Shown here: one piece after another, positions 6,736 through 22,531 of the stretch | Layout of the letters: every line of letters starts with the position of its first letter | Position numbering within the stretch: position 1 is the stretch's first letter | IMG/VR virus record: IMGVR_UViG_2778261509_000018 | Direction: 5' to 3' (one strand) | Length of the DNA stretch: 22,531 nucleotides | Source of the DNA: a virus | Lineage: Duplodnaviria > Heunggongvirae > Uroviricota > Caudoviricetes | The notes under the pieces: model-generated | Database searches by the model: none | The model's input: only the letters and a program-made list of their open reading frames with translations | What the model was told of the DNA's origin: nothing | Made by a program: the position numbers and the translations under genes

Positions 6736-6879
6736 AACAACTGGACAAGTATACAGAGGTTTACTAAAGTATAGGGGAGTAGATTGATAAAAACTCACAG
6801 AGGATTGCTATTTAACAGTTAGCCCTGGAGAAGGGCAATCGCTCTTTTACAAACGAAGGTGTATTGAGCCTTCTACGTC

Positions 6880-6941
6880 GCTGACAAAGCGGAATGTTCT
6901 TTAACAGGCTTTGGCGCTGACAAAGCGCAATTGTTCTTTAA
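6880..6941 (+). repeat. Two imperfect about 25-bp direct repeats (GCTGACAAAGCG-N-TTCTTTAA) in the int-alpA intergenic region
   Basis: Seen directly at 6880-6904 and 6916-6941; a 15-bp-stem hairpin (7043-7077) lies nearby. Confidence 0.3.
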
Positions 6942-7163
6942 AACTACTGGATGTCACGCCTAATAGCGTGATCCTGCCGAAATGCAGGGTAGCTCTACCC
7001 TTGTGGAGCAAACAAACCAAAACAATCTGACTATCTTTTATAAAAGACCGCAATATGTTTTTCATATTGTGGTCTTTGGCGTATTCGACATTTGACGCAA
7101 ATAAAACTCTCGCCATTCGTTGCAGGAGGGGGTTATTGCGTCATTAGTACAGGATATTAATAA

Positions 7164-7367
7164 ATGGCTAATTACAATTCATTAATTCGTCTCTCTGAAG
7201 TTCAAAGGCGAACTGGTTATAGCAAAGCATGGATTTATCGTCTTATTAGTCAGGGGAGGTTCCCTAAACAGGTAAAAATTGGAAGTCGGGCAATTGCTTT
7301 TGTTGAGTCTGAAATAGATGAATGGATTGAGAAGTGTATATTAGAATCTAGAGACGAGGTGGCCTGA
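7164..7367 (+). CDS. alpA: AlpA-family phage transcriptional regulator / excisionase-like HTH protein
   Basis: 67-aa protein with LSEVQRRTGYSKAWIYRLISQGRFPKQVKIGSRAIAF, the classic AlpA/MerR-like HTH; position right after a P4-type integrase. Confidence 0.8.
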   Translation: MANYNSLIRLSEVQRRTGYSKAWIYRLISQGRFPKQVKIGSRAIAFVESEIDEWIEKCILESRDEVA

Positions 7368-7798
7368 TGGAAAAGAAAAACCGCCCATTACAGGCGGCTA
7401 ATTCAGATATTCGTGTATCTGATGTTACGCCCCTTACAAAATCCCCTCAAGCACCAAAGCGCACACCGAAAAAGCATCGTGCCAGAGTCTATATGCTGCG
7501 TACTGGTATAGAGGGATGGACAGAAAATGACATTCTTCGCTACTGCCGTCTGTCTTCTGGTCGTAACTATGCAACAGAGTTAGAACGCCAGCTTGGAATC
7601 ACTCTGGAGCGTATCGACGAAAAGAATCCTGATGGTATCGGAACACACCTTCGCTACCGTTTCTCCTGCCGTGGTGATGTTCTGAAAGTGATCACTCATA
7701 TTAACCATCTTGCGAACATAAATGATCACAACGGACTTTCTCAGCAGGAAATTGCCGACATTCTGAAACTCTACCCGGACGCGTTTAACGCCGCCTAA
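7367..7798 (+). CDS. Hypothetical protein (143 aa), translationally coupled to alpA
   Basis: Start overlaps the alpA stop (TGATG); basic N-terminus; no motif recognised. Confidence 0.55.
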   Translation: MEKKNRPLQAANSDIRVSDVTPLTKSPQAPKRTPKKHRARVYMLRTGIEGWTENDILRYCRLSSGRNYATELERQLGITLERIDEKNPDGIGTHLRYRFSCRGDVLKVITHINHLANINDHNGLSQQEIADILKLYPDAFNAA

Positions 7799-7810
7799 CG
7801 GAGACTGAAA

Positions 7811-8644
7811 ATGAACATCGAAAAAAGCAGATTAATTTCTGAGGCCGCCCCTCATCTGAACGCCTCTCTGGGCACAATTAACGGTAATGAATTTGCCGCA
7901 ATTGTCCCGGTTATTCCTGGTCATATCGGTGGGCGTGAAACCAATATTGTTAGCGCAAAAGCGTTACACAAAGCGTTGGGCGTGGGAAAAGACTTCTCTA
8001 CATGGATCACTGATCGCATCTCTGAATATGACTTCACCATTGGGCACGATTACTCAGTCCATAAAACTATTTCCCCAAATTTGGGGAAAATCCCGAATGG
8101 CGCGGCTTACAGCAAGATTAAGCAGTCTGGCAGACCCGGCAAAGACTATCTGTTAAGTGTCGGAATGGCGAAAGAACTGGCAATGATCGAACGCAATGAT
8201 CAGGGGCGCGCTATCCGCCGTTATTTCATCCAGTGCGAGGAAGAATTACAGCGTAGCGTGCCTGAAATCGCCGCCCGCTATCGTCGCCAGCTAAAAGCCC
8301 GTCTCAGTGCCGCAAACAACTTTAAGCCAATGTGCGATGCGCTGAATATGGCCCGTGCCGAGATGGGTAAAACGACGCAGCAACACCACTACACAAACGA
8401 GAGCAATATGATTTCTCGTATCGTTCTTGGTGGGCTAACTGCTAAACAGTGGGCGCGGATAAATGGCTATTCTGGCGAACCTCGCGACCATATGAACGCA
8501 GAACAACTTGAGCACCTCTCATATCTCGAAAGCACCAATATCACGTTAATTGATATGGGCATGGAATATGAGCAGCGCAAAGGAGAACTCACCCGACTGT
8601 CGCAACGCTGGCTCGCCAAGCGTCTGGAGGCGGTCAATGTTTAA
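7811..8644 (+). CDS. Phage antirepressor-like protein (AntA/KilAC-like domain)
   Basis: Segment FSTWITDRISEYDF...GKDYLLSVGMAKELAMIERNDQGRAIRRYFIQCEE resembles antirepressor/KilAC domains as I recall them; assignment by recollection only. Confidence 0.55.
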   Translation: MNIEKSRLISEAAPHLNASLGTINGNEFAAIVPVIPGHIGGRETNIVSAKALHKALGVGKDFSTWITDRISEYDFTIGHDYSVHKTISPNLGKIPNGAAYSKIKQSGRPGKDYLLSVGMAKELAMIERNDQGRAIRRYFIQCEEELQRSVPEIAARYRRQLKARLSAANNFKPMCDALNMARAEMGKTTQQHHYTNESNMISRIVLGGLTAKQWARINGYSGEPRDHMNAEQLEHLSYLESTNITLIDMGMEYEQRKGELTRLSQRWLAKRLEAVNV

Positions 8645-8819
8645 GCCGACAGGAACACCACAACCTCAAAAACGCTACAAAGATGCCCACGGAGCACTCG
8701 TTACTGTCGAAAGCGTGTCTCACAACCGAGTGACGTTTTATCGCGACGGGTATCAATCGCCATGCGTACAACCGCTGGCGCGTTTCATGAAGGAGTTCGC
8801 GGAGGTTAACAAATGCTAA
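8637..8819 (+). CDS. Small hypothetical protein (60 aa)
   Basis: ATG overlaps the upstream stop (AATGTTTAA); the longer upstream extension in the ORF track is in a different frame from the preceding gene and is unlikely to be used. Confidence 0.35.
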   Translation: MFKPTGTPQPQKRYKDAHGALVTVESVSHNRVTFYRDGYQSPCVQPLARFMKEFAEVNKC

Positions 8820-9841
8820 CCGTCCAGAAGAAGACATTTTCACTGGCTGGTATGTCGCCAAAATCCAGCAATATGACAGCAAAGTCAGGCATTAATACAG
8901 CAGATACAAGCAAAGTTTATCATTTGCTGGTGGTAGGAGCGGATGCCTTAACTATGTCAGAAATTACGGTCGATGGTGTTAGCGTTGAGAAGGTCAGCGG
9001 CTGCGCCAGAGAATTTCTGGTCGTAGATCACCTGTTCTGCTCGTGTAGTGACTCCACAAAAACATTCGTCCACGTGCGTGACGTTAACGAAATGAGCGCG
9101 ATGTATTGTGCATCTGGTGCTTCCAATAGTGAGTTTTCGGAGTCCATAAAAAAGAGCTTGCCGTTATGCGGCAACACGGTTTATGGTTATAAGGCACCTC
9201 ATAAAACGGGTGCCGGGATTAGGACCCCGCAGGCAATCGAGGCGATACATGACGCGCCAGCGTCTTTTTTTGTATCGGCGCACACGCACACCTTATCAAT
9301 GGTGGGCTGTATGGGGCTGACTTCGGTCAGGCTGGTTTCCTTGATTGCCAGTAGTCCTAACCCTGTACAGTCCACCGCCAGCGAGCTTAGGACCTCCGGC
9401 GGTGGCTATAAACCATCAATCAAGGAGGCTGCCACATGCTGGCTACTACCCCTACCCAAAAACCGCAATTTATCTGGATTATCGCCGCAGTTCGCCGCGA
9501 TTGCCCGACAATTACCGCCAAAATTCATCATATTGCTGCCGAGTCTGAACGCGATGCTCGCCGTTCTCTGGTGCGCGATCACGTCTGCTTTTTTGCTGGT
9601 CGTATCCGCATGGAGGTGGCACATGATTAAAACCTACGATGTGCATATGGATCCCCTCGAACGCACAAGCCAGATCATCACACTGACAGAAGTGATTAAC
9701 GACATTCTGGTGAGCAACTCTCCCTCACGAGACGAAAGGCTGAAGGCGTTACTCGCGATATTGGATCTCGCCGTTCGTGACGTTCATTTCCTGCTGGAAG
9801 GTGGACAAATGCCAGTAAAAACGGGGGCAACCAATGAATAA
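8813..9841 (+). CDS. Uncertain long ORF (342 aa, Cys/Ser-rich); possibly two genes read through (8813 to about 9430, and 9623-9841, 72 aa)
   Basis: Open frame with ATG overlapping the previous stop (ATGCTAA); completely overlaps the Icd-like ORF in another frame; internal ATG at 9623 overlaps the Icd-like stop (ATGATTAA). Confidence 0.25.
9436..9630 (+). CDS. Host cell division inhibitor Icd-like small protein (64 aa)
   Basis: Strong Shine-Dalgarno AAGGAGG at 9422-9428, 7 nt before the ATG; sequence ([17 protein letters not shown]...) resembles Icd-like proteins of P4-like elements as I recall them. Confidence 0.4.
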   Translation: MLATTPTQKPQFIWIIAAVRRDCPTITAKIHHIAAESERDARRSLVRDHVCFFAGRIRMEVAHD

Positions 9842-10028
9842 CTCAATTAATACCCCTCGCCTTACGTCCGCACTTCAATTAATCGAGCAAGCAGCGGCTG
9901 TCCTGGTTGCTGTCAGTCTTTCGGCTGAAGAAATGGACGCTGCTGATGTCGTGGATGCGATTAAAGCGTGCTCATCTTTGGTTAACGATGCCCGTGCCGA
10001 GCTGGTAATTCTTGGGGGTGAAAAATGA
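9834..10028 (+). CDS. Small hypothetical protein (64 aa)
   Basis: Start overlaps the upstream stop (ATGAATAA); part of the coupled gene chain. Confidence 0.4.
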   Translation: MNNSINTPRLTSALQLIEQAAAVLVAVSLSAEEMDAADVVDAIKACSSLVNDARAELVILGGEK

Positions 10029-10288
10029 ATATCAACTTAATTTATCGTCATCCGTGTGAGCTGGAAATTGAATCATTGCTGGGGCGCGAAGAGCCATATC
10101 CAGACACATTCACTCCCGCAGATTGCGCGACTGAACGGCTTACCAGAGCGCGCACAGGTCTGGTTCATGTGATGAATGAGATTGTTCCCTCGGTGGGAGG
10201 GGAACAGGCGACAGTAATCAATAGCTGGCTACAAAAAGTTACCTCCCTGATAGATATCGGTTTAATCGATGTGGAGAGTGCGAAATGA
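10025..10288 (+). CDS. Small hypothetical protein (87 aa)
   Basis: ATGA start/stop overlap with the upstream ORF. Confidence 0.4.
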   Translation: MNINLIYRHPCELEIESLLGREEPYPDTFTPADCATERLTRARTGLVHVMNEIVPSVGGEQATVINSWLQKVTSLIDIGLIDVESAK

Positions 10289-10506
10289 CCAACATCCAGC
10301 TCATTGAAGCGCAATGTCGCATCGAACAGGTTCAGACTGTTTTAGGGTTCTGGCTTGAAGGGGCCAGCCCCAGCAACAGAGACAAGTTAATGATTGGCGC
10401 GGTTATGTCACTGCTCAATGGCGTACCAGAAGCTATTCAGGAAGCGGACGAATTGTTGGGCAAATATGAGTTACAGAATCATTCAGGCGAGGCGAAACAT
10501 GAATAA
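10285..10506 (+). CDS. Small hypothetical protein (73 aa)
   Basis: ATGA start/stop overlap with the upstream ORF. Confidence 0.4.
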   Translation: MTNIQLIEAQCRIEQVQTVLGFWLEGASPSNRDKLMIGAVMSLLNGVPEAIQEADELLGKYELQNHSGEAKHE

Positions 10507-11101
10507 TTTCTTAACTTTCCATGCAGAAGCAACGCCTGACGGCGTAAACATCATGTACCGCAGCAACGATGGCATGACAGAACGCGTTGAGGCCGTCTCA
10601 TATATTGATGCCGTAAATCGTCTGGATGCCGGGGATTATGACGATAAACCAGATGAAGGCATGTTTATACATCTCGCTATTGCCAGTGGCGGCAACCAGG
10701 GATATTTCGATTACACATCACAGCATCACGTGATTATGTGGCGCTGGCTGATAGCAACAGCATTCATCAATGAAATGAGAAAGGAAAACGGCACCGTCAG
10801 CATTATTGATGACAGTGGCAATCATTCCGTGGTTTCTGTTTATTCCAATGGCATCGTCGCCATGCCGCTGTATCCAGTAGCAGAGCGCCTCGCTATGGCA
10901 AACAACATTGAGGGCGCAATGATCGAGAAATATGGTGTTGATGTCGGAACAAAGAATGCCATCATTTTTTACAGCAACATGTTCGATGTCGAACAGGGAA
11001 CACTCACTTCGTTTGGGCGAGAAGTGCTTGCCGATCTTCACAACAGCTTTATTGCCGAACTAAACGAAAACGGCATCCCAGAAGCACCAGTGACGCACTA
11101 A
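10499..11101 (+). CDS. Hypothetical protein (200 aa)
   Basis: Start chosen at the ATG overlapping the upstream stop (ATGAATAA) rather than the track start at 10394, which overlaps the previous gene in another frame. Confidence 0.5.
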   Translation: MNNFLTFHAEATPDGVNIMYRSNDGMTERVEAVSYIDAVNRLDAGDYDDKPDEGMFIHLAIASGGNQGYFDYTSQHHVIMWRWLIATAFINEMRKENGTVSIIDDSGNHSVVSVYSNGIVAMPLYPVAERLAMANNIEGAMIEKYGVDVGTKNAIIFYSNMFDVEQGTLTSFGREVLADLHNSFIAELNENGIPEAPVTH

Positions 11102-11113
11102 ACGGGGGCCAGA

Positions 11114-13465
11114 ATGCGAAACATTGATCTTATCCGTCAGGTTATCAGTGCGTCTGAAAACAACTGGCCTCATGTGCTGGGCTGCCTGAACATAAATGTC
11201 CCTGACTCTCCGCGCCGTCATGCTCCCTGCCCTGCATGTGGGGGCAAAGATCGATTCCGGTTCGATGACAACGGGCGCGGTAGCTTCATCTGTAATCAGT
11301 GCGGCGCTGGTGATGGGCTGGATTTAATTAAACGCGTAAATAACTGCGACACAACAGAGGCGGCGCTTCTTGCCGCTGATGTTCTGGGTATTGATTACCG
11401 GACAACGGAAACACCAGAAGCCACCAGCCAGAAACGGGAACAACTGGAAACCGAGCGCCAGCGACGCGAACAGGAGCGCCTGAAAAGGGCAGAGAAGGAC
11501 GAACAACAAAGACGGGATACGTTTTCCCGTCAGTTTGATGACATGCGCAGAAAGGCTGTAAACGGCAAATCTGATTATCTGGTTGCGAAAGGGGTAGGTG
11601 ATTTTACATTCCCCGTGTTGCCCGATGGATCTCTGTTGCTGGCGCTGGTGGATAAATCCGGCGCAGTCACAGCAGCACAGACTATTACCCCACATGGTGA
11701 AAAAAGACTCCTGACAGGTTCGGCAAAGCGGGGGGCATATCACGCCATAAACGCACAGAAACGACCTCACAGCATCATAATTGCTGAGGGGGTGGCTACC
11801 GCCCTGTCGTGCCATTTAATTCGCCCTGACGCAATGACAGTGGCAGCAATCGACGCTGGCAACCTGTTGCCAGTAGCGGAAGTCATGCGCAGAACATATC
11901 CGCAGGCACAAATAATCATTGCCGCAGATAACGATCACCAGCAAGGAGACTCAGAAAGTGGAGGGATCAACACGGGGAAAGATGCCGCAGAGAGGGCCGC
12001 TATTTCCGTAGCTGGCAGGGTGTCTCTGCCACCGACTGACTATAAAGCCGACTGGAACGACTATCACCAACAACACGGGCTGGCGGCAGCCACAGCAGCA
12101 TTTAAAGATTCGATGTACCAGCCACGGGGGAAAGGGGCGCAGGTGAAAAATCACAAACAGTCAGTCGGGGCGCTGAATGAGATCAGTTCTGGCGAGGTGT
12201 TAAGCGATGATGAAATTGCTGTCCTCGAAGAAATCAACCGGACGTTTACGCATGTCACCATCGGCGGGAAACACAAGGTGGTGTCGCTAAAGCCTTCTCA
12301 AACCGGCGGTGTATCGCACGTTTTCGAGGATTTATCACAATTTCAGCATTATTTTCATCATAAACCGAGAGTCGCCAGAAAGCTGGCGGGATCGGCGTGG
12401 CTGTCATGGAGTGGGAAGAACTACAAGCCAGGAGGCGTAGGATTTTATCCAGTACCAGACAAATGCCCTGACGATGTTTTTAATCTGTATGAGGGGCTGG
12501 CACTGGAACCAATTGAAGGAGATTGCACGGTATACCTTAATCACCTGTTGCAGGTTGTCTGTGCCGGTAATGAAGAGGCATGCCAATATCTTATCCAGTG
12601 GATGGCGCACATTATCCAAAAGCCTGATGAAAAACCGTCCGTGGCAATCGTGATGAAATCTGTCCCGGGCACAGGGAAAGGCACAACGGTTAAACCGCTG
12701 CTGCAAATACTGGGGCAGTACGCCGCCCACATTAACGGGGCGGGACATATTTCAGGGCGCTTCAATTCAATACTTGCTAACAAGCTACTGGTATTTGCTG
12801 ACGAAGTGACGATCCACAAGCCGTCTGAAGCTGACAGACTTAAAGCGATTATTAGCGAACCGACGTTTAACCTTGAGCGCAAGGGAATTGATGCTGAACC
12901 AATGCCGAATTTTGCCCGGTTGATATTTGCCAGTAACAGCACACAGGTATTACAGGCAGGGATAAGAGAGCGTCGCTATCTCGTGCTTGAGCCATCTCCT
13001 GAAAAAGCACAGAGCCGGGAGTATTTTGATCGGCTGTACAGTTGGCTTAATGATGGCGGTGCCGCAAAGTTGCTTTGGCATCTTAAAGGGGTGGATCTCT
13101 CAGGTTTTGACCCTCAACGAGCGCCACAGACCGATGCCTTACGTGAAGAAATCTTGCTGGGGCTGTCTGGCGTTGAATTGTTTCTTTATGGCGAGCTAAT
13201 CAATGAACCTCCGTTTAATGGCGAAGTCCGTTTGTTTGCAAAGGATATGGTTAGTCGGTTTGTAGCGTGGTCGCTTGAGCGTGGGGAAAAGCTTAAAGAA
13301 CCAGCTGCCAGATCACTACTGGGTAAATCACTTGCACAAATGGGGCTGGTGAAGCATGGAAGACCAGACCGAGGGAATGGCGTGTTCTACGAACTACCAG
13401 AGGTCGGAGTTCTACAGGCTGCGTTTGCCCGTCTGATCGGTATGGGGGGTTATGATGTTTTTTAA
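11114..13465 (+). CDS. P4 alpha-type replication protein: zinc-binding primase (Toprim) fused to a D5-like helicase domain
   Basis: Zn-ribbon CPACGG...CNQCG near the N-terminus, Toprim-like IIIAEGVATALS and DNDHQ, Walker A VPGTGKGT and Walker B-like LLVFADE in the C-terminal half; 783 aa; downstream of int/alpA as in P4-like elements. Confidence 0.9.
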   Translation: MRNIDLIRQVISASENNWPHVLGCLNINVPDSPRRHAPCPACGGKDRFRFDDNGRGSFICNQCGAGDGLDLIKRVNNCDTTEAALLAADVLGIDYRTTETPEATSQKREQLETERQRREQERLKRAEKDEQQRRDTFSRQFDDMRRKAVNGKSDYLVAKGVGDFTFPVLPDGSLLLALVDKSGAVTAAQTITPHGEKRLLTGSAKRGAYHAINAQKRPHSIIIAEGVATALSCHLIRPDAMTVAAIDAGNLLPVAEVMRRTYPQAQIIIAADNDHQQGDSESGGINTGKDAAERAAISVAGRVSLPPTDYKADWNDYHQQHGLAAATAAFKDSMYQPRGKGAQVKNHKQSVGALNEISSGEVLSDDEIAVLEEINRTFTHVTIGGKHKVVSLKPSQTGGVSHVFEDLSQFQHYFHHKPRVARKLAGSAWLSWSGKNYKPGGVGFYPVPDKCPDDVFNLYEGLALEPIEGDCTVYLNHLLQVVCAGNEEACQYLIQWMAHIIQKPDEKPSVAIVMKSVPGTGKGTTVKPLLQILGQYAAHINGAGHISGRFNSILANKLLVFADEVTIHKPSEADRLKAIISEPTFNLERKGIDAEPMPNFARLIFASNSTQVLQAGIRERRYLVLEPSPEKAQSREYFDRLYSWLNDGGAAKLLWHLKGVDLSGFDPQRAPQTDALREEILLGLSGVELFLYGELINEPPFNGEVRLFAKDMVSRFVAWSLERGEKLKEPAARSLLGKSLAQMGLVKHGRPDRGNGVFYELPEVGVLQAAFARLIGMGGYDVF

Positions 13466-13494
13466 TATAGTCTTTTTACAAGAAGATCGTTTTT

Positions 13495-13598
13495 ACCTGT
13501 ACCACCTATACCACTTTGCTAATTCAGTATTAAAAACAATGTGTTATAGTGGTACAGGTCAATATCTTACCTATACCAGACCTGTACCACCTATACCA
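13495..13598. repeat. Iteron cluster 1: repeated CCTRTACCA 9-mers (within ACCTGTACCACCTATACCA units) in both orientations; candidate replication origin
   Basis: Direct units at 13495-13513 and 13580-13598, a partial unit at 13568-13578, and an inverted TGGTACAGGT at 13550-13559; immediately 3' of the primase-helicase gene. Confidence 0.5.
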
Positions 13599-13641
13599 TT
13601 AACAAACGCATTTCTTCTGGCTGGCTGAGAGGGAACAGCCA

Positions 13642-13872
13642 ATGATGAGCACACCATTTTACAAAGTGCGCCAGTTAGCTTCTTCCTCTGGCTGGCAGCT
13701 ACGGTTTGAGGGGCGTTCAGACTGGCTACCCATTGCGGCATGGGCGAATGTTGAAATGTGTATTGACGGCGATACCGTTGAAATCATTATTCCCTGCGTG
13801 GCAAGTCGGGACGGCTGTATAGAGCCAACAGATATGGCAGCAGAAATCAGAGAGGTAAAACATGAACAATAA
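13642..13872 (+). CDS. Small hypothetical protein (76 aa)
   Basis: ORF between the two iteron clusters; weak GAGGG Shine-Dalgarno; overlaps the start of the next ORF. Confidence 0.4.
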   Translation: MMSTPFYKVRQLASSSGWQLRFEGRSDWLPIAAWANVEMCIDGDTVEIIIPCVASRDGCIEPTDMAAEIREVKHEQ

Positions 13873-14599
13873 CTATTGCATACCGCAGGGAATGACCAGA
13901 ACGGAGCGCGAAGAATTAAAAAGTTTCGCTACACAGTGCGGGAATGCTGGCGACATCCAAAGTCTGGAACGCACTTTAATTATGATTGCGCACTGGATGC
14001 GTCAGGGGCAAAGGGTTTCATTTACTGAATATGCCAGCCAGTGGACAGAGGCACAGCGCGAACGGAGCGACGGTAATCACTCAACACCCGAAATGGCGAA
14101 GCAATGGCCTTTCAGTGGTAAACGCTGTATCAGTCCCGGTGGTTCAGATTATTACCCTGCTGGTGTGGGAGATGAGCCATGTTGTGACGAGACTGAAATC
14201 CGCCACGCAGTGACAGTAATTACCGCTGAATACCCACAATTTAACCTTGACGGACTGGCGCTCCACAACCGGAATGCGGACTGGGAAAACCCGCTTGATA
14301 ACCCGTCATTTATCGTATCGGCGAAAAGCTGCCTGAGATGGATCAGAGACAACGGGATGAGTAATGCCCAGATTGAGAGCTTCCCGCAGGATAACCCCAC
14401 ATCTGACACGTTGAAGCATGAAGTGGAGCGATATAACCAGATAAACCACCAGCACAGTGATCACCCGCACTATATCCCCAACGGAGCATTTATTGCGGCG
14501 ATGGTGGCAAGCGGCTACAAGGTTAAGCCAGCGGGAAGAATGAACGCATTTTTCAATATTTCAAAAAAAGGATTATGTGCTGCTATGGGTAAAAATTAA
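13862..14599 (+). CDS. Hypothetical protein (245 aa)
   Basis: Uninterrupted ORF with start overlapping the previous gene; no motif recognised. Confidence 0.55.
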   Translation: MNNNYCIPQGMTRTEREELKSFATQCGNAGDIQSLERTLIMIAHWMRQGQRVSFTEYASQWTEAQRERSDGNHSTPEMAKQWPFSGKRCISPGGSDYYPAGVGDEPCCDETEIRHAVTVITAEYPQFNLDGLALHNRNADWENPLDNPSFIVSAKSCLRWIRDNGMSNAQIESFPQDNPTSDTLKHEVERYNQINHQHSDHPHYIPNGAFIAAMVASGYKVKPAGRMNAFFNISKKGLCAAMGKN

Positions 14600-14605
14600 A
14601 TAAAT

Positions 14606-14709
14606 GGTACAGGTCTGTACAGGTGGGGAGAGGTCATTTTTACCCACCTGTACCACCTGCAGGCCGCGCTACACAAGGGTTTGTGACATGGTGGTACAGG
14701 TGGTACAGC
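14606..14709. repeat. Iteron cluster 2: TGGTACAGG / CCTGTACCA copies in both orientations
   Basis: TGGTACAGG at 14606-14614, CTGTACAGG at 14617-14625, CCTGTACCA at 14648-14656, tandem TGGTACAGG-TGGTACAG at 14693-14709; same 9-mer family as cluster 1, about 1.05 kb away. Confidence 0.5.
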
Positions 14710-15073
14710 AAAAACAGCGATTTTCTTTATAAGGTATGTTTTGCTCATCTGGCAGACGGAGGTATTCGCTGCGGTTTGGCACGTAGCCCAGAACAGCAAA
14801 GAGTTTTACGAGACTTTTGTAAAATCCAGTGTACAAGGGCGTGACGTTTTTGAAGGAGAGACCTACGAAATTTTCGTAGTTCAAAAAATAGCCTCTGAGA
14901 TGTTGTTATGCCTGTTCAGCAAACCATCCGCATAGCTGATCGCGAATCAAATTACCAATGGAGCCAGAAGCAAGGGCAGAACTGGAAAGCGCCTGCCGTG
15001 AAGAGTAATGCGACATCATAAATATAGTTTTTAGAGTCCATAAAAAACCTGTCAAAACCTGACATACAGAACG

Positions 15074-15107
15074 ATGCCACCAGCTACTGAGCGGTGGCAT
15101 TTTTTTG
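15074..15107 (+). terminator. Strong rho-independent terminator (ATGCCACC-N11-GGTGGCAT followed by T7)
   Basis: Perfect 8-bp GC-rich stem plus a run of seven T; ends an about 400-bp stretch with no convincing ORF. Confidence 0.6.
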
Positions 15108-15140
15108 TGCTATTTGTTTCATATTTTGCAATCACAATGA

Positions 15141-15176
15141 TGAATGTTGCGTTTTGTGAAACTATAATGACTGTTG
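15141..15176 (+). promoter_or_regulatory. Candidate promoter for the 15202-18951 operon (-10 TATAAT at 15164-15169)
   Basis: Consensus -10 hexamer about 35 nt upstream of the first ORF start; the -35 element is weak. Confidence 0.3.
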
Positions 15177-15201
15177 TTTTATACAGTTCTAAGGGGACGT
15201 T

Positions 15202-15375
15202 ATGGCTATTTCAGTAAAGCCAGTATTGATAAGTGAGAAGCAAATGGAAGCGATAAAGAAAATTCAGGAGGAGCAGCGTAAAAAATCAGAGGTAGGAGTT
15301 GCGCCAACGATCCACGAAATTGCTCGGGGATTAATGGATAAGGCGCTGGCTTACACTTTAACTGGACGTGGGTAA
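15202..15375 (+). CDS. Small hypothetical protein (57 aa), first gene of the cargo operon
   Basis: Not in the ORF track (below its size cutoff); AAGGGGA Shine-Dalgarno 5 nt upstream of the ATG; its stop is 4 nt before the next start; possible small DNA-binding or regulatory protein. Confidence 0.4.
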   Translation: MAISVKPVLISEKQMEAIKKIQEEQRKKSEVGVAPTIHEIARGLMDKALAYTLTGRG

Positions 15376-15379
15376 ATTT

Positions 15380-16846
15380 ATGGCTACTTGGCAACAAGGA
15401 ATCAACTCAGGCGGTTTTCTGGCTGGCATCGGTACGCAAAACGAGAATGCGCCAAAGGCAAGCGACATTAACGCAACGCTTGGTCTGATCCGCGAAAACA
15501 ATGAACTGGCTCGCTCAGGTGCAAATAACGTTGCTCTGACAGGTCTTCGTGGTCTGGCTGGAGTTGCTGATATTTATAAGCAGCAGCAACAGCAGGAGCG
15601 TAAAGCGGCATTCCAGAAAGGTTATGCAGATGCTTATGCGTCCGGTGACAGGGAGCAGATGCGTAATCTTATTACAGCATTCCCAGAAGAGTTTGAGGAA
15701 GTCCGTAAAGGGATGAGTTATGTCGATGATGCTCAAAGGGATGATTATGGCAATCTGGCGCTCAAAGCACAGGTAGCCTCATCGCTTGGTCCGGGCGCAT
15801 TTGGCAGGTTCATGATGGATAATGAGCAGGAGATGCGTCGTTTAGGTATCCCTCCAGAAACTATTGCTGAAATGCAGGTTAATGACCCGCAGGGCTTCCA
15901 GCATTTCGCAGGTAATCTGGCGCTGTTTTCTCTCGGTCATGAGAAGTATTTCGATATCAAAGATCAAATGGAAGGTCGGGATATTGAGCGTGGCAAGTTG
16001 GCAGAGACAATCCGCAGCAATCAGGCTGGCGAAGCACTTCAGGCGAGAGGGCAGGATATTAGCCGAGCAAATGCGTTAACGTCAGCATATGCACCAACAG
16101 CAGCAATGCAGAATTACAATCAGTACGCGCAAATGTTAAAGGCGGATCCAGAGGGGGCGGCGGCATTTGCGGCAGCGGCTGGAATTAATACAAACGCCAA
16201 AAAATTAATGAGTGTTAGAGAAAACGATGATGGCACTGTCACAAAATACTACACAGACGGAAGTGAAGAGCAGGGAAAACTAAACCAGCCAATATCTGGA
16301 GATGGGTTTCGTCCAATAGCTTTGCCAACAGCCCAAAAGATCATGGAAAAGTCGCCAGAAGGGGCTAAAAAAGCTGCTGGATTTGCATACAGGGTTAGGG
16401 ATGCTCTTGATTCAATAGATACACTGAAAGACCAGCTTAGCCCACAGCGAGTGGCGATCATTAATAATGCTTTGGGTAATGGGACGCTGGCTAACTTAAC
16501 GCTCAGCCCAGCAGAGCAGCAATACGTTGTTAATGCTAATGACGCAATAATGGCAATACTCCGTCAGGAAACAGGGGCATCTATCCTACCAGCTGAAATG
16601 TCCAAATATTATCAAATGTATTTCCCTCAGCCTGGTGATTCCACAAAAACCATTGATACCAAGCGCCGGAAGATGGAAAACCAGTTCAATTCGCTGAAAG
16701 CTGCTTCTGGTCGAACTTATGATGCTTTGCGGGTTATTTCAGCAGTTGACAGAGGAACTGCTTCTTCGTCGCAGACATTGCCGCAATCTGAGCAGGTATC
16801 ACAGCCAGCAGCCAGCAGTAACTTTTCTTCACTATGGGGTGATTAA
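15380..16846 (+). CDS. Hypothetical Ala/Gln-rich protein (488 aa)
   Basis: Long ORF, start taken at the ATG at 15380 (the track's GTG at 15368 is less likely); stop overlaps the next start (TAATG); composition suggests a largely helical protein; no enzymatic motif recognised. Confidence 0.7.
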   Translation: MATWQQGINSGGFLAGIGTQNENAPKASDINATLGLIRENNELARSGANNVALTGLRGLAGVADIYKQQQQQERKAAFQKGYADAYASGDREQMRNLITAFPEEFEEVRKGMSYVDDAQRDDYGNLALKAQVASSLGPGAFGRFMMDNEQEMRRLGIPPETIAEMQVNDPQGFQHFAGNLALFSLGHEKYFDIKDQMEGRDIERGKLAETIRSNQAGEALQARGQDISRANALTSAYAPTAAMQNYNQYAQMLKADPEGAAAFAAAAGINTNAKKLMSVRENDDGTVTKYYTDGSEEQGKLNQPISGDGFRPIALPTAQKIMEKSPEGAKKAAGFAYRVRDALDSIDTLKDQLSPQRVAIINNALGNGTLANLTLSPAEQQYVVNANDAIMAILRQETGASILPAEMSKYYQMYFPQPGDSTKTIDTKRRKMENQFNSLKAASGRTYDALRVISAVDRGTASSSQTLPQSEQVSQPAASSNFSSLWGD

Positions 16847-18951
16847 TGGCTAAAGCATGGAAAGATGTTATCGCCTCTCCACAGTATCAGGCGTTAGCAC
16901 CAGAACAAAAAGCGCAGGCTCAGGAGCAATACTTCAATGAAGTCGTTGCCCCGAAAGCCGGAGAAAGTGTAGAGCAGGCTAAGCAGGCTTTTTATGCTGC
17001 CTATCCACTACCATCAACGAATGCAATAGACCGATCCCAATCAGCAACTCAAAATATTCAACATACATCATCTGATAATTCTCTTGCGTCAGGGTATGCA
17101 AAGTTAGCTACTCAGCAAAGAGAGGGGCTTGAGCGTTCAGCAGAACAGGGAGCCAGTCTTGGGGCTGCGATGCGCGATGCTATAACAGGCGAAAGCCGAA
17201 TGACTCCAGAGATGGAGAGACTGCAAAATGTCGCCTCTGCCCCAGAATTGAACTCACTAAGCATGGATGCCCTAAAGGCTGGATGGTCTCAACTTTTCGG
17301 CTCTGACGCGTCTCAGGAAAAGATTCTTCAGGGAATGGGGGCGACATTAAGGCAGGATGAGAAGGGGAATACTATCGTTTCTCTGCCATCAGGTGATTAT
17401 GCCCTGAACAAGCCGGGTTTATCACCGCAAGACCTGACCTCGTTTCTTGCTAATGCGTTGGCGTTTACACCAGCGGGCAGGGCCGGAACGGTGCTGGGGG
17501 CCATAGGAAAATCAGCAGCTACAGATTTAGCACTACAGGGAGCCACCAGCCTTGCTGGTGGAGAAGATATTGATCCGTTACAAACGGTAATTTCTGCTGG
17601 CATTGGTGGTATTGGTAAGGGGCTGGAAAATACAGCGAGTGCGGTTTCGAGGGCTGTTCGTGGTGATATGTCGCCTGAAGCAAAGGCTGCTGTCGACTTT
17701 GCATCGGAAAGAAATCTGCCGTTAATGACCAGTGACATGCTGAAAGATAAAACCTTTATGCAGAGTCAGGCTCAGACATTAGGCGAAAGAGTTCCTTTTT
17801 TTGGAACCGGTAAGAATCGGCTGAATCAACAACAAGCACGAGAAAATTTAGTCAGAACATTTAGCGATGGTCTGGGTGGCATTTCTGATAAACAGCTTTA
17901 TGAATCTGCGACTAAAGGGCAACAAAAATTCATTGAGGCAGCAGGAAAGCGATATAACCGCATAATTGACGCTATGGGGGATACCCCTGTCGATCTCTCA
18001 AACACGGTAAAAGCTATCGACAATCAGATTGCCGTGTTAAGCCGCCCGGGCAAATCTCAGGATAGAGCCGCGGTAAAAGTCTTGCAGCAATTTAAAGACG
18101 ATATCACCAGCGGACCAAATGACCTGCGTCTGGCGAGGGAAAACAGAACCGATCTTCGAAAGCGATTTATGGCGTCATCTGACACTGTTGATAAAGATAC
18201 GCTCCAGAAAGCCAGCGATATTATCTACAAGGCATATACGGCGGATATGAAAAAAGCCGTAGCCAAAAATCTTGGAGCAGACGAAGCCATTAATATGGCA
18301 AGGGTTGATCGCTCATGGTCTAAATTCAATGACATGATGGGAAGAACGCGCGTTCAAAAGGCAATAGCCAGCGGCAAGGCCACGCCTGAGGATGTAACAA
18401 AACTCGTTTTTAGCCAAAGCCCATCAGAACGTTCTCAGCTTTACAGGCTTCTGGATGACAATGGTAGGCAAAACGCACGAGCAGCCATAGTTCAGAATGC
18501 TGTAGATAAGGCGACTGATCCGTCTGGAAATATCAGTGTTGAGAAGTTTATTAATGCGTTACACCGGAACAGGAAGCAATCAGCAACTTTCTTTAAAGGC
18601 GTACATGGAAAGGAACTGGACGGCGTTATTAAATACCTCAACGATACAAGACACGCGGCAAAAGCGAACGTTCAAAACTTAAATGGTCAGCAGCTTTATG
18701 GATTGTTAGTTGGTGGTGGCATCATAAACGCAGCAGTATTAGCGGGGATGCTAAAAACGGCTGCGTTTGTTGTTCCTGCTGCTGGTGCCGTAGGCGGAGC
18801 AGCGAAGGCATACGAAAGCCCTGTTATACGAAATGCCTTGTTACGTCTGGCAAATACGCCAAAAGGTAGCACAGCATATGACAGAGCGATCAGTACGGTC
18901 ACACAATCGCTCACCAGAGTCGCACAGGCATCACAAAAAGAATCTCAATAA
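16846..18951 (+). CDS. Hypothetical Ala/Gly-rich protein (701 aa) with a C-terminal glycine-zipper hydrophobic hairpin; candidate membrane-inserting effector
   Basis: C-terminal segment LYGLLVGGGIINAAVLAGMLKTAAFVVPAAGAVGGAAKAY is about 37 mostly apolar residues with a central Lys, about 45 residues from the C-terminus; the rest is hydrophilic and A/Q/G-rich. Confidence 0.7.
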   Translation: MAKAWKDVIASPQYQALAPEQKAQAQEQYFNEVVAPKAGESVEQAKQAFYAAYPLPSTNAIDRSQSATQNIQHTSSDNSLASGYAKLATQQREGLERSAEQGASLGAAMRDAITGESRMTPEMERLQNVASAPELNSLSMDALKAGWSQLFGSDASQEKILQGMGATLRQDEKGNTIVSLPSGDYALNKPGLSPQDLTSFLANALAFTPAGRAGTVLGAIGKSAATDLALQGATSLAGGEDIDPLQTVISAGIGGIGKGLENTASAVSRAVRGDMSPEAKAAVDFASERNLPLMTSDMLKDKTFMQSQAQTLGERVPFFGTGKNRLNQQQARENLVRTFSDGLGGISDKQLYESATKGQQKFIEAAGKRYNRIIDAMGDTPVDLSNTVKAIDNQIAVLSRPGKSQDRAAVKVLQQFKDDITSGPNDLRLARENRTDLRKRFMASSDTVDKDTLQKASDIIYKAYTADMKKAVAKNLGADEAINMARVDRSWSKFNDMMGRTRVQKAIASGKATPEDVTKLVFSQSPSERSQLYRLLDDNGRQNARAAIVQNAVDKATDPSGNISVEKFINALHRNRKQSATFFKGVHGKELDGVIKYLNDTRHAAKANVQNLNGQQLYGLLVGGGIINAAVLAGMLKTAAFVVPAAGAVGGAAKAYESPVIRNALLRLANTPKGSTAYDRAISTVTQSLTRVAQASQKESQ

Positions 18952-18969
18952 CTGGTTAGCCATGGATGG

Positions 18970-19389
18970 CTAATTTTTGTTCTTTGCTCTCATCCATAGG
19001 TAAAGAAGGGAAAGAACAAGACAAAAAACAGAGAATAGATAACCTACCTCATATGGTGCGCCAAAAAAATTAGCTATTGATACGGGCAAAAAAGCTGAAG
19101 CGATCAAAATTGAAAGGCAAAAAATAAGCCCAGTAATATAGTTTATTAAATTCTTAAATGAGAAACGTTTTGCTTGATTTACGGTCTTAACGAACGATCG
19201 CTTAACGACGGATAAAAGCAAATAGATGGCGACAGTTGCTAATGCCCCTTTCCACCAGTCTGGATATAGTTTTGCGACAATCAGACCAAGTAAAACCATG
19301 ATGACAGCCTGAGCATTCACACCAACCCTCCCTTTAGCTTTGTTTAGAATGGCAATCATCATATATCCAAGACATGGCATTTGGTACAT
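18970..19389 (-). CDS. Small polytopic inner-membrane protein (139 aa, 3-4 predicted TM helices); immunity-like candidate
   Basis: Four hydrophobic stretches (AQAVIMVLLGLIVAKL, ALATVAIYLLLSVV, ITGLIFCLSILIASAFLPVSIANFF, YLFSVFCLVLSLLYLWM); AT-rich; convergent with the 701-aa gene, 19 bp downstream of it. Confidence 0.55.
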   Translation of the reverse strand: MYQMPCLGYMMIAILNKAKGRVGVNAQAVIMVLLGLIVAKLYPDWWKGALATVAIYLLLSVVKRSFVKTVNQAKRFSFKNLINYITGLIFCLSILIASAFLPVSIANFFGAPYEVGYLFSVFCLVLSLLYLWMRAKNKN

Positions 19390-19435
19390 AGCTTGGGTCG
19401 GGATTTCAAATCCGCTCCCAGTTGATGGGGCCGTT

Positions 19436-19830
19436 ACAGTACGCGCATATCCGCTTTATGTGAAACAGGAAGATTTTTCTGATATCACTGCCACAGCAAA
19501 ACACCAATTTCGAGACAAGTACGCGCGCGAGGGGTATCAGTTGCAAAAAATTTTGCAACTACGTCCGACCAGTACGCGCACGATGGAGGGGAGTACCATA
19601 AAACTGTTCTCTACATAAGTCAGAGTAGTGGTGATGTGTTGATTATCGGCGTATATGCGCACAGGACGCGCTATGACGATGTTTTATGCGGGTACACCAA
19701 TCACATGTATCTGGTGTGATAAATCGCGTTACATGACCTCTCATGTTGTGCTGGTGGTTATCACGACTTTCTGAATCTGGCCTTTGCCTGATATTTTGCG
19801 ACAAGTACGCGCGCGTAGCATCGAAATTAT
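19436..19830. repeat. Cluster of AGTACGCGC(GCG) GC-alternating palindromic repeats (copies at 19436, 19514, 19567, 19810)
   Basis: Shared core ATTTYG-N-GACAAGTACGCGCGCG at 19514-19529 and 19810-19830, containing the palindrome TACGCGCGCGTA; degenerate copies at 19436-19450 and 19567-19582; an 8-bp inverted repeat TTGCAAAA-AA-TTTTGCAA at 19541-19558 lies between copies. Confidence 0.45.
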
Positions 19831-19966
19831 CGGATGGCGTATGCTGCTGGCAATATGAAGACCGATAGTATTAACCGAAAAGCGATTAAGGAGTGCCAAC
19901 TTTTCAGTAGAGAAACTAGCCAGCATAGGAAAATGTAGAAATTACCCAATTAATAGGTAAAAGTTA

Positions 19967-20162
19967 TTGACACAGCCTGTAGTGGATAACGATATGAATA
20001 AAAACCACATATAGTGGTTTTTCGTGAGTGATGATAGTACCTATGTTAGTTTCCTAAGTAACTGTGCATTGACATGTGGATAACTTCGGATAGAGTTACA
20101 CTCAACTGAGCCCGGCCCCCTGGCTTTATCTTGTCTTAGATGAGAAATTGTTATGGCCGGGC
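19967..20162 (+). promoter_or_regulatory. Candidate promoter/leader region of the Abi gene: two TTGACA hexamers each followed by GTGGATAAC, plus a 5' leader inverted repeat
   Basis: TTGACA at 19967-19972 and 20069-20074; TGTGGATAA at 20075-20083 is the reverse complement of the DnaA-box consensus TTATCCACA; GCCCGGCC (20110-20117) pairs with GGCCGGGC (20155-20162). Confidence 0.3.
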
Positions 20163-20194
20163 CTTCTTGTATCTGGAGGTAGGAAACCTTTTGT

Positions 20195-21157
20195 ATGGCT
20201 GTTCCGGTTAAGGTTCATAAAGAATATGATGAACTTGTCGATTTATTGCTGTCTCGGGGTATGGATGTGCCAGATCGCGAACATGCTATCAAGAAAATCT
20301 CACAAGTAGGCTACTACCGATTATCAGGCTTTTGGTACCCCTGCCGAATCCCCCATATAACAACAGACAATATTAGAACCAGACTCGATCAGGTTCGTCC
20401 AGGTACTAATTTTCGCGCAGTATATGACCTCTATTTATTCGATAAAAATCTGCGTTTGCAGATGATGAATGCGTTAGAACGCATTGAGGTTTATGTTCGG
20501 TCAGTTATTGCTCATGAGCTTGGTAAGATATCTCCTTTAGCATATCTTGATGACTCGCTAATAAATCCAAAACACTTTAGACCACGTTCCCATGGTCGCC
20601 CAAGCGCCAGAGAAGAATGGATAAATAAACATAATGCCGAGATTGCTAAAAGTCGCGAAGACTTTATCAAATGGCATGAAAACAAGTACGAAGGTCTTCC
20701 TTTCTGGGTGGTTATTGAAGTGTGGGACTTCGGCTTAATGTCAAAGTATTATGCGATGCTAAAAGACAGCTATCGCAACAGGATACTATCTAGGCTAGGG
20801 ATAGCGGCAGGCAATGGAGCTATCTTCCAAAACTGGCTTAGCGCAATGAATGTGCTAAGGAATCGGTGCGCTCACCATTCACGCATCTGGAACAAGGTCA
20901 ACGAACCAAGATTAATGCCTTTGCCAAATGAGCCGTACTTTGAACAATTAAATATGAATGATGATGCGTACGAAAGAATGTACGGAATGATCGCTGTGTT
21001 ATGGTTTTTAGTGAAAAAAATTGGACCGGGATCTGACTGGATAAAAAAAGTTGCCAACCTTGTAGATAACAAGCCTAACTTACCAGGATGTAACCTGACA
21101 GCCATGGGATTACCTGATAATAACGGTTTCCCAAGGCATTTATTTGATATTGAATAA
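20195..21157 (+). CDS. Abortive infection protein, Abi_2 (AbiD/AbiF-like) family
   Basis: N-terminal ELVDLLLSRGM...YYRLSGFWYP and the signature LRNRCAHHSRIWN are characteristic of AbiD/AbiF-type Abi proteins as I recall them; 320 aa. Confidence 0.85.
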   Translation: MAVPVKVHKEYDELVDLLLSRGMDVPDREHAIKKISQVGYYRLSGFWYPCRIPHITTDNIRTRLDQVRPGTNFRAVYDLYLFDKNLRLQMMNALERIEVYVRSVIAHELGKISPLAYLDDSLINPKHFRPRSHGRPSAREEWINKHNAEIAKSREDFIKWHENKYEGLPFWVVIEVWDFGLMSKYYAMLKDSYRNRILSRLGIAAGNGAIFQNWLSAMNVLRNRCAHHSRIWNKVNEPRLMPLPNEPYFEQLNMNDDAYERMYGMIAVLWFLVKKIGPGSDWIKKVANLVDNKPNLPGCNLTAMGLPDNNGFPRHLFDIE

Positions 21158-21158
21158 A

Positions 21159-21614
21159 TTATAGCGATGGCGCTGAATGTAGCGCCACTGATAACTTTTC
21201 AGCATTGCTTCCCTGACGCTTCCACGCGCTGTAAATATCTTTATCCCATGCCTTACCAGCTTTTGTTTGATAGCCTGCTTCATTGATCCGTTCAGCTATC
21301 ACGCGCCCATTATCAAATCCCTGTCGGATGGTATCGGCAATGATCTTTATAACTGCCGTTTCGTTATATGGCTTTGGTGGGATGTTCGGCTTTCCGGCAA
21401 TAAGCGACGCAGCGGCTTTTTCCATGCGCTCCACCAGCCCAAGCATTCGTGAATCAATAGACTTTTCCGGCTGTCCCAGCTTCATGCGAATCGCATCAAC
21501 AAGCCAGGAGGTTTTATCCCCTCCAGAAGCGAGAACAGACCGATTAAACTCATCCTGCAATTCAGATGGGATGCGGAACGCGACCAGATTAGATTTGCTC
21601 ATTGCAAAGACCAT
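21159..21614 (-). CDS. Putative DNA-binding protein with an N-terminal ribbon-helix-helix (Arc/CopG-like) segment (151 aa)
   Basis: N-terminus SKSNLVAFRIPSELQDEFNRSVLASGGDKTSWLVDAI has the beta-strand plus two-helix pattern of RHH repressors; its stop is 1 nt from the Abi stop (convergent); alternative start at 21602. Confidence 0.55.
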   Translation of the reverse strand: MVFAMSKSNLVAFRIPSELQDEFNRSVLASGGDKTSWLVDAIRMKLGQPEKSIDSRMLGLVERMEKAAASLIAGKPNIPPKPYNETAVIKIIADTIRQGFDNGRVIAERINEAGYQTKAGKAWDKDIYSAWKRQGSNAEKLSVALHSAPSL

Positions 21615-21631
21615 ATCAGTGAGTAATATCC

Positions 21632-21662
21632 ATACAGTATACCACTGTATAACACTGTTATA
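21632..21662. promoter_or_regulatory. Two adjacent perfect palindromes (ATACAGT-N5-ACTGTAT and TATAACA-C-TGTTATA) in the divergent promoter region; candidate operators
   Basis: Seen directly at 21632-21650 and 21648-21662, between the divergent starts at 21614 (-) and 21767 (+). Confidence 0.4.
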
Positions 21663-21766
21663 CGCTCAAATATCAGCCAGAAAATAACGGACCAATCACA
21701 AAGCTATCGCTGTGTTGTTGGTTCAGAGCTGGGCTGTGTTGGTTCAAAATAATCTGAGAGGCAGAA

Positions 21767-22048
21767 ATGATAAGGGACAGGAAAGCTGAAGAGCTGGAGT
21801 CAAAAGGGCTATACCGGAGAGCTGCCGCACGATGGATGGAAGTCATGCTGTTATGCACCGAGGACGATGATCGGGAATGGATAAAGCGCCGCCGTGAAAC
21901 GTGTCTGGAGAACGTGAAGCGCCCGCCCGTGAAGGTTGAGGACTTTGGCGACCTGCATAAAGCTGTTACCGAAACGCAACACCGCATGGGGATAGCGCAA
22001 CCGAACGGTAACGCCTTCCGGTTAAATGGCGGCAAGAGGCAAAGGTAG
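21767..22048 (+). CDS. PerC-family transcriptional regulator-like protein (93 aa)
   Basis: KGLYRRAAARWMEVM...REWIKRRRETCL resembles the PerC/Pch signature (GLWRRAA.RW) as I recall it; hairpin CCAGAGG-N8-CCTCTGG at 22052-22073 follows the stop. Confidence 0.45.
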   Translation: MIRDRKAEELESKGLYRRAAARWMEVMLLCTEDDDREWIKRRRETCLENVKRPPVKVEDFGDLHKAVTETQHRMGIAQPNGNAFRLNGGKRQR

Positions 22049-22096
22049 ACCACCAGAGGGAAATCATCCTCTGGCTGGCGGTTTCTGGTATTTCGG

Positions 22097-22120
22097 GACA
22101 AGTACGCGCGCGCGTAGCAC
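22097..22120. repeat. Fifth copy of the GACAAGTACGCGCGCG palindromic repeat (contains TACGCGCGCGCGTA)
   Basis: Same core and same upstream context (ATTTCGGGACAAGTACGCGCGCGCGTAGCAC) as the copies at 19514 and 19810; same orientation. Confidence 0.45.
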
Positions 22121-22345
22121 CCAATCGGTGAGGAAATAGCGGCGACCTGAATGGTCAAAATCACAACGCAGCTATCCCCGTAAGCAGCGCTTAACGGAAT
22201 AGCAGTAACCTGAATCCAGTGGGGAGGGGGTAGTCAAATCTCTACAGCCCTGACTATCCGGGACTGCCCGCCCCATCGTTTTTTTATACCCGCGAAAAAT
22301 GAAATTTAATCCGGGCGTGTTTCATCCTTCCAGAGGGTATGACGT

Positions 22346-22531
22346 ATGACACCACGCGAAATAGCCTTATTGACCATCGCCAAACTTGAGCACGGAGGCC
22401 ACCAGCTTACACAGGCAGATCAACGGGAGATAGAACGATCAGTTAATGCCGATATAGCCCGGCGCGACAGGTTCCGCGAAATGATGCGAGCACCTGCCTA
22501 CCAGTGGAAGAAGCCAGCGCCGCGCAGGTAG
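22346..22531 (+). CDS. Small hypothetical protein (61 aa); stop codon is the last three bases of the window
   Basis: ORF with basic C-terminus; no motif recognised. Confidence 0.35.
   Translation: MTPREIALLTIAKLEHGGHQLTQADQREIERSVNADIARRDRFREMMRAPAYQWKKPAPRR

Follow-up and report, generated by a model that had tools for sequence, protein, structure and literature searches.

Current literature describes AbiF, and the AbiD/F group more broadly, as type III toxin-antitoxin systems made up of a protein and an upstream RNA (PMC12373285, PMC12737573, PMC13064643), and the Prevotellaceae AbiF (PbAbiF; PDB 8vz6) has been solved as a dimer with two copies of its own RNA. EcCIMP1 is a phage-inducible chromosomal island (PICI) of Escherichia coli mobilized by the P22-like phage Kapi1, with helper-dependent excision and transfer shown for EcCIMP1 only (PMC11773190), and hotspots of P4-like satellites and P2-like phages hold a fixed slot between backbone genes in which anti-phage cargo is rapidly exchanged (PMC13586616). 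The present analysis concerns an abortive infection (Abi) gene, and the gene convergent with it, in a 22,531-nucleotide stretch of DNA (IMG/VR record IMGVR_UViG_2778261509_000018, Caudoviricetes; the whole stretch is termed the window). Positions 20069-21157 very probably constitute a self-contained AbiF type III toxin-antitoxin module that is swappable cargo of an EcCIMP1-like PICI, with the convergent 147-aa gene belonging to the island backbone.

The module resembles AbiF-AbiFr (PbAbiF, 8vz6) and AbiFCd-RCd22 in its Abi_2/HEPN protein, its Rx4H motif, and its full-length alignment to 8vz6, and shares with RCd22 a structured RNA directly upstream on the same strand, a terminator-like stem followed by the open reading frame (ORF), and carriage on a mobile element (PMC12373285). 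The RNA here is a single element of approximately 72 nt with two helices that escapes detection by the Rfam abiF model RF03085, whereas RCd22 comprises two 33-35-nt abiF motifs, and the protein is approximately 28-30% identical to the C. difficile phage AbiF and belongs to a clade known from sequence alone. The initial annotation had treated Abi_2 genes as usually described as single-gene systems, a premise that is outdated for AbiD/F (PMC12373285, PMC13064643), and a candidate RNA of the upstream kind is present at this locus. These results correct an appealing two-gene model of the Abi gene and its ribbon-helix-helix (RHH)-like neighbor; they do not overturn current understanding or establish a new principle. 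The AbiF type III kind was already known, and what is added here is an AbiF cassette precisely delimited to 20069-21157, together with a candidate for its antitoxin RNA.

The Abi Gene and the Limits of Its Cassette

The features of the cassette and of its junction with the island backbone are the following.

20069-21157, plus strand: Abi cassette, self-contained, with promoter, 72-nt structured leader, and ORF
20069-20096, plus strand: sigma-70-type promoter of the cassette (TTGACA, 16 nt, TAGAGT; 10 of 12 consensus matches)
20103-20174, plus strand: structured 72-nt leader, candidate AbiFr-like antitoxin RNA (covariance model R1, 80.4 bits here)
20175-20179, plus strand: Shine-Dalgarno sequence GGAGG of the Abi ORF, immediately 3′ of the leader, assigned from the sequence
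20195-21157, plus strand: Abi_2 ORF, 320 aa, predicted AbiF/AbiD-family HEPN ribonuclease toxin with Rx4H motif R222...H227
21158-21204, no strand: cargo-backbone junction, with the homology break points of Abi cassettes and E. coli islands
21159-21602, minus strand: core PICI gene, 147 aa, with an N-terminal RHH-like segment (residues ~5-45) joined by a helical linker to a C-terminal recombinase-like helix-turn-helix (HTH) domain (residues ~75-130)

By homology, the product of the Abi ORF is predicted to be an AbiF-type HEPN ribonuclease toxin. Its initial assignment to Abi_2 was borne out by Pfam (PF07751; E 3.6e-52 and 177.8 bits, compared to a gathering cut-off of 25.6), by the PADLOC match to AbiD (2.7e-57), and by the presence of both signature peptides (YYRLSGFWYP and NRCAHHSRIWN), and the protein also matches the PHROG family 2158. 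The alignment with the AbiF of PDB 8vz6 extends over the full length (E 7.5e-34) and places the RNxCxHH motif in line with RNSCCHH of that structure. The HEPN Rx4-6H motif takes the form R222-NRCA-H227, and residues R222, A226, H227, and H228 were unchanged across 30 homologues.

Transcription from the cassette promoter is predicted to start near 20103, and its TTGACA element was unchanged in six aligned cassettes and kept by the majority of upstream regions from more distant loci. Abi orthologues with 70-81% identity were identified in unrelated contexts: beside an integrase (Serratia), beside an insertion sequence (IS; Dickeya), and, for Citrobacter, within lambdoid prophages, in their replication/nin region. 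DNA homology with these foreign-context cassettes starts at 20069-20091 and stops at 21131-21157, so that it is gone by 21157. With E. coli islands that lack this Abi allele, homology restarts at 21180, 21192, or 21204, within the final codons of the RHH-like gene. The junction holds a 7-bp hairpin (21168-21187), and a terminator scan gave no canonical intrinsic terminator between Abi and the convergent gene. A single base (21158) separates the Abi stop (21155-21157) from the end of the convergent ORF at 21159, and the ORF coordinates (21157 and 21159) therefore confirmed the stop-to-stop convergence with 1-nt separation that had first drawn attention to the pair.

A Conserved Structured RNA Upstream of the Abi Gene

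The leader in the window consists, in order, of CAACUGAG, the 5′ strand of stem P1, CCCUG, the P2 hairpin, UAU, the P1 return strand, and a U-rich tail (20163-20174), where P1 is an 8-bp stem (20110-20117 with 20155-20162) and P2 pairs 20130-20135 with 20139-20144. The same architecture was kept in Abi loci down to 42% protein identity, with the family consensus CAAC-N-G-N, P1, CC-Y-CU-G, P2, UAY, P1 return strand, and CUUCUU. P1 was paired in 98% of cases, with compensatory changes at five to six of its eight pairs, and pairing fell to 56% or below in shifted-register controls; compensatory changes were also present at all seven pairs of P2, which is absent from the covariance model. R1 matched 74 of 78 independent metagenome Abi loci with upstream sequence (80 loci, 356 kb), and these matches occurred once per locus, always on the Abi strand and just upstream of the gene, and nowhere else in the 356 kb. 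Within 805 kb of RHH-anchored loci, R1 matched only the seven that have an Abi gene. The leader is an AbiF-associated RNA of a divergent or distinct class that the current Rfam model misses, and its presence at 74 of 78 related loci could improve the annotation of this Abi clade.

A mechanism can be proposed in which one promoter would give rise to a structured RNA of approximately 72 nt, the 3′ end of which is a GC-rich closing stem followed by a U-rich tract. Most transcripts would presumably terminate at the P1 stem and this tract, and read-through would yield the mRNA for the HEPN ribonuclease. [quoted passage not shown]

Several points weigh against this reading. The first leader alignment was chosen in part by a P1 pairing requirement, and R1 was therefore tried on unseen loci, which offset the selection. 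The Rfam abiF model gave no match at its gathering threshold, at E values up to 10 over 2.5 kb, or in 116 nt, and the leader is for this reason placed in a divergent or distinct class. The single-sequence folding z-score of the leader (-1.8) is not significant alone, the comparative evidence being decisive, and the U-tract in the window is imperfect (CUUCUUGUAUCU) and was not called by the terminator scan. That the leader is a separate transcript, binds AbiF, and neutralizes it is proposed by analogy. With regard to the convergent gene, it adjoins Abi at 41 of the 106 testable Abi-anchored loci from viral and metagenome collections, a recurrent adjacency that is attributed to exchange within the slot described below, with this Abi clade as a frequent cargo; and fold searches with a model of the 147-aa protein returned no RHH match.

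A leader acting only in cis, as a 5′ untranslated region with an attenuator or translational regulatory role and no trans-acting antitoxin RNA, is improbable. Such a role would be consistent with its position between the promoter and the Shine-Dalgarno sequence, with its ending in a stem and U-rich tract, with the missing match to the Rfam abiF motif, and with a single-sequence fold in which the Shine-Dalgarno sequence is predicted to pair with downstream sequence (20186-20191); a cis-acting attenuator or translational regulation has reportedly been proposed for lactococcal abiD1. However, the homology of the protein to an AbiF whose structure includes its RNA spans the full length, and the unpaired segments CAAC, CC-Y-CU, and UAY of the leader are strongly conserved, as contacts with a protein would predict. 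The small structured RNA just upstream, and not the RHH-like protein, is retained as the likely partner of Abi.

The Island

The backbone that carries the cassette has the following position and genes.

5521-18951, plus strand: EcCIMP1-like PICI backbone, with integrase, AlpA-like HTH protein, AntA antirepressor, Ash, primase-helicase, and two P22-like ejection-protein genes

Judged by its genes, the window is an EcCIMP1-like PICI of E. coli. The ejection genes are followed by a gene for a small membrane protein (minus strand), Abi, the 147-aa gene, and PerC, and the island lacks capsid, tail, and lysis genes. Its gene content and order are as in EcCIMP1 (PMC11773190), with the integrase, AlpA, antirepressor, Ash, primase, DNA-transfer proteins, and PerC in the same succession. 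An identical copy of the island in NZ_CP062855 lies at tRNA-Thr between proA and yagU, which is the chromosomal site of EcCIMP1 (proA/tRNA-Thr to yagU), although the window itself contains no tRNA. A megablast search of 18900-22531 against a phage collection gave no match; the element is a chromosomal island and not a deposited phage. No known defense system was found in EcCIMP1 by its authors, and the corresponding end of EcCIMP1 bears a second alpA-like gene (PMC11773190), whereas the island in the window holds the AbiF cassette in its slot and an EcoRII restriction-modification system on its left flank.

A Variable Slot Next to the RHH-Like Gene

Abi occupies a hotspot of variable content in which defense genes are often present. 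This slot is positioned between the P22-like ejection-protein genes and the conserved 147-aa gene, and islands cease to be homologous to one another 22-54 nt within the 3′ end of the latter. The stop-to-stop contact of Abi with its neighbor is explained by a cassette that terminates at its own stop codon and by a slot boundary located in the last codons of the backbone gene. Among the islands compared, the slot of L002 holds a CapP-like ImmA/IrrE protein and an unknown gene, those of L003 and L200 hold small unknown genes, and those of L004 and L201 hold a second Abi allele. ShosTA occupies the slot in Klebsiella (L013-L018; 6434-7980), where the ShosT stop lies 1 nt from the RHH-like stop, and other slot neighbors include SoFic and a defense-associated protease. 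With naive ORF calling, the immediate neighbors of the RHH-like gene fell into 33 clusters among 38 loci, 27 of them convergent and 11 co-directional, with gaps of 25 nt or less at several convergent loci and ranging up to approximately 680 nt.

The arrangement is like that of the P4-like satellite and P2-like phage hotspots in having a fixed slot between backbone genes with rapidly exchanged anti-phage cargo, and differs in the satellite family, in its flanks, which are ejection-protein genes and the RHH-like gene, and in a right boundary that falls in the 3′ codons of a gene (PMC13586616). The RHH-like gene may therefore serve as a practical anchor for mining defense genes in EcCIMP1-like PICIs, with cargo such as AbiD/F, ShosTA, SoFic, and CapP-like proteins.

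A generic gatekeeper role for the RHH-like gene, with its convergent transcription or its protein tuning any cargo in the slot and coupling defense expression to the state of the island, is unlikely. The predominance of convergent neighbors (27/38), the gaps of 25 nt or less, the missing canonical terminator between the two genes here, and the slot boundary within the 3′ end of the gene would agree with this role, but 11 of the 38 neighbors are co-directional, the gaps extend to approximately 680 nt, and the cargo cassettes bring their own promoters and regulators. Furthermore, Abi persists beside a broken RHH-like gene: in E. coli CS5L (L202; 3461-5239) an IS3 element splits the RHH-like gene and in Rahnella (L064; 6998-7174) an N-terminal truncation leaves its last 58 codons, and the adjacent Abi ORF is intact in both. 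A gatekeeper linked to the state of the island or of the helper phage and, separately, a leader representing a proteobacterial class of AbiF antitoxin RNA apart from Rfam abiF are proposals to which little probability is given. The reading of the RHH-like gene as island backbone beside exchangeable cargo is retained.

Upstream of the Abi promoter, the approximately 680 nt from the membrane-protein gene (19390-20068) contain no convincing ORF and no Rfam match, and are 96-98% identical in islands with other cargo (L002, L003, and L004).

Distribution of the RHH-Like Gene and Abi

The initial annotation had raised the possibility that Abi has, in the RHH-like gene, a dedicated regulator or antitoxin-like partner, a proposal that the distribution of this gene, the disrupted loci, the location of its operator, and the spacing at ShosTA do not support. 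In E. coli (5,426 complete genomes), the RHH-like gene was present in 361, this Abi allele in 55, and the second allele (325 aa, 51% identity) in 74, and either allele occurred in at most 129 of the 361 RHH-bearing genomes. In RHH-like loci from 49 other Enterobacterales (one genome per species), a detectable Abi_2 gene lay beside the RHH-like gene in two and was not found in the remaining 47. Presence of the RHH-like gene without Abi in most genomes had been named beforehand as the outcome that refutes the pairing, and this is what the co-occurrence analysis returned. The two genes also diverge discordantly in other contigs, with identities of 88-89% for Abi compared to 72-74% for the RHH-like gene, and exchange of a cassette therefore fits better than a co-inherited two-gene system.

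RHH proteins are common as antitoxins and repressors, and together with the tight convergence (stops 1 nt apart) and the adjacency at 41 of 106 Abi-anchored loci this might favor a dedicated antitoxin or transcriptional regulator of Abi_2, but such a two-gene system is very unlikely indeed given that the RHH-like gene is far commoner than Abi both in E. coli and in other species, close Abi orthologues occur without it, Abi is intact beside its broken copies (L202 and L064), its operator is confined to its own promoter, ShosTA shows the same stop-to-stop geometry, the divergence of the two genes is discordant, and Abi has a candidate cognate RNA.

The 147-aa Protein and Its Operator

The convergent gene had been listed as a 151-aa ORF reaching 21614, and the gene itself stood while its length did not: a second methionine at 21602 gives 147 aa, and this is most likely the real start because RefSeq uses it and (M/V)S/NKS opens the protein at 44 of 44 orthologue loci. 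The family is a narrow one of Enterobacterales, with 83 representatives at 50% identity from a search of 1.84 billion proteins, and is conserved to approximately residue 130, followed by some 15 variable residues.

The N-terminus is probably RHH-like, as initially proposed, in spite of the absence of a direct Pfam RHH match. The assignment is favored by the match to PHROG 30270 (E 2.9e-4), by an hhalign alignment that places the N-terminus in register with P22 Arc and Mnt and that is weak (P ~0.004, probability 8%), by the links of distant relatives to RHH_1, Arc, NikA, and TacA, and by the tracking of operator type described below. The AF2 monomer model contains helices at 13-25 and 30-42 at low confidence, without a strand. 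The protein most likely belongs to the island backbone, binds DNA, and is autoregulated.

The divergent region beyond the RHH-like gene contains the following features.

21632-21663, minus strand: operator and promoter of the RHH-like gene, with a palindrome over the -35 followed by an extended -10, TGG TATACT (21644-21636)
21767-22048, plus strand: PerC/ANR-family regulator (Pfam PerC, E 1.7e-30), divergent from the RHH-like gene, counterpart of EcCIMP1_025 (PMC11773190)

The two palindromes at 21632-21663 and the Pfam PerC match bear out the earlier description of a palindrome-rich region shared with a divergent PerC gene. The palindrome GTATAACA-C-TGTTATAC lies at 21647-21663 (0.04 chance matches expected in the window) and overlaps a second, ATACAGT-N5-ACTGTAT, at 21632-21650 (0.03 expected by chance). 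At 44 of 44 loci across genera, the RHH-like gene is preceded by a repeat element that covers the -35 and then by an extended -10, and cross-genus homology upstream of the gene ends at approximately 21664. The RHH-like protein most likely represses its own promoter via the 21647-21663 palindrome, which is the only such operator in the window apart from one 2-mismatch site outside the island, and none lies near the Abi promoter.

The form of the repeat varies with the protein. An inverted repeat GTATAACA-N-TGTTATAC (GTATAAC/GTTATAC) accompanies residues 5-8 N-L-[V/I]-A or T-L-V-A (24 loci), and a direct repeat TGTCTTAC-NN-TGTCTTAC accompanies [L/I]-S-V-T (19 loci). Operator type thus tracks residues 5-8 in 43 of 44 loci, and the remaining locus, scored as mixed through a frame offset, has the TGTCTTAC direct repeat too. 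This tracking is supportive and not proof because it represents effectively one evolutionary switch; the operator classes and recognition-residue classes nevertheless form a natural pair for an uncharacterized DNA-binding family.

A LexA box was rejected as an identity for the RHH operator, the sequence not fitting CTGT-N8-ACAG. The 2-mismatch palindrome GGATAACAATGTTATCC at 4644-4660 is within a 449-aa ORF without a family match, and its resemblance to the operator is probably coincidental.

PerC was found beside the RHH-like gene only in E. coli and near-identical contigs, and elsewhere in the island in other genera. Just upstream of its start, two copies of a 14-nt direct repeat, GCTGTGTTGGTTCA, are spaced 24 nt apart (21709-21746) and may be a binding site for a regulator.

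This end of the island is also presumably comparable with the P22 immI region (gene 16, sieA, mnt, arc-ant), in that a gene-16-like ejection gene is followed downstream by a gene for a small minus-strand membrane protein and then by a minus-strand RHH-like gene with a palindromic divergent promoter. It differs in the additional recombinase-like HTH domain of the 147-aa protein and in having PerC and not arc-ant as the divergent partner, and the resemblance offers a lead and not a demonstrated homology.

In Pantoea coffeiphila (L023), two full RHH-like copies (7001-7423 and 8252-8674) lie on the same strand 1.2 kb apart, which suggests islands in tandem or a duplicated island end.

Other Features of the Window

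Directly left of the island integrase, positions 1-2683 encode an EcoRII-type restriction-modification system with a Dcm-like methylase and the EcoRII endonuclease. The two P22-like ejection/DNA-transfer genes occupy 15368-18951, and a satellite with its own ejection proteins is unusual; the EcCIMP1 counterparts have been linked only tentatively to packaging (PMC11773190). Finally, Rfam matches to isrK (9194-9270, 63 bits) and to the C4 antisense RNA (9295-9382, 80 bits) were identified on the plus strand just downstream of the AntA gene, within an ORF annotated as "Ash family," and resemble the c4-ant control module of the P1/P7 immI type.

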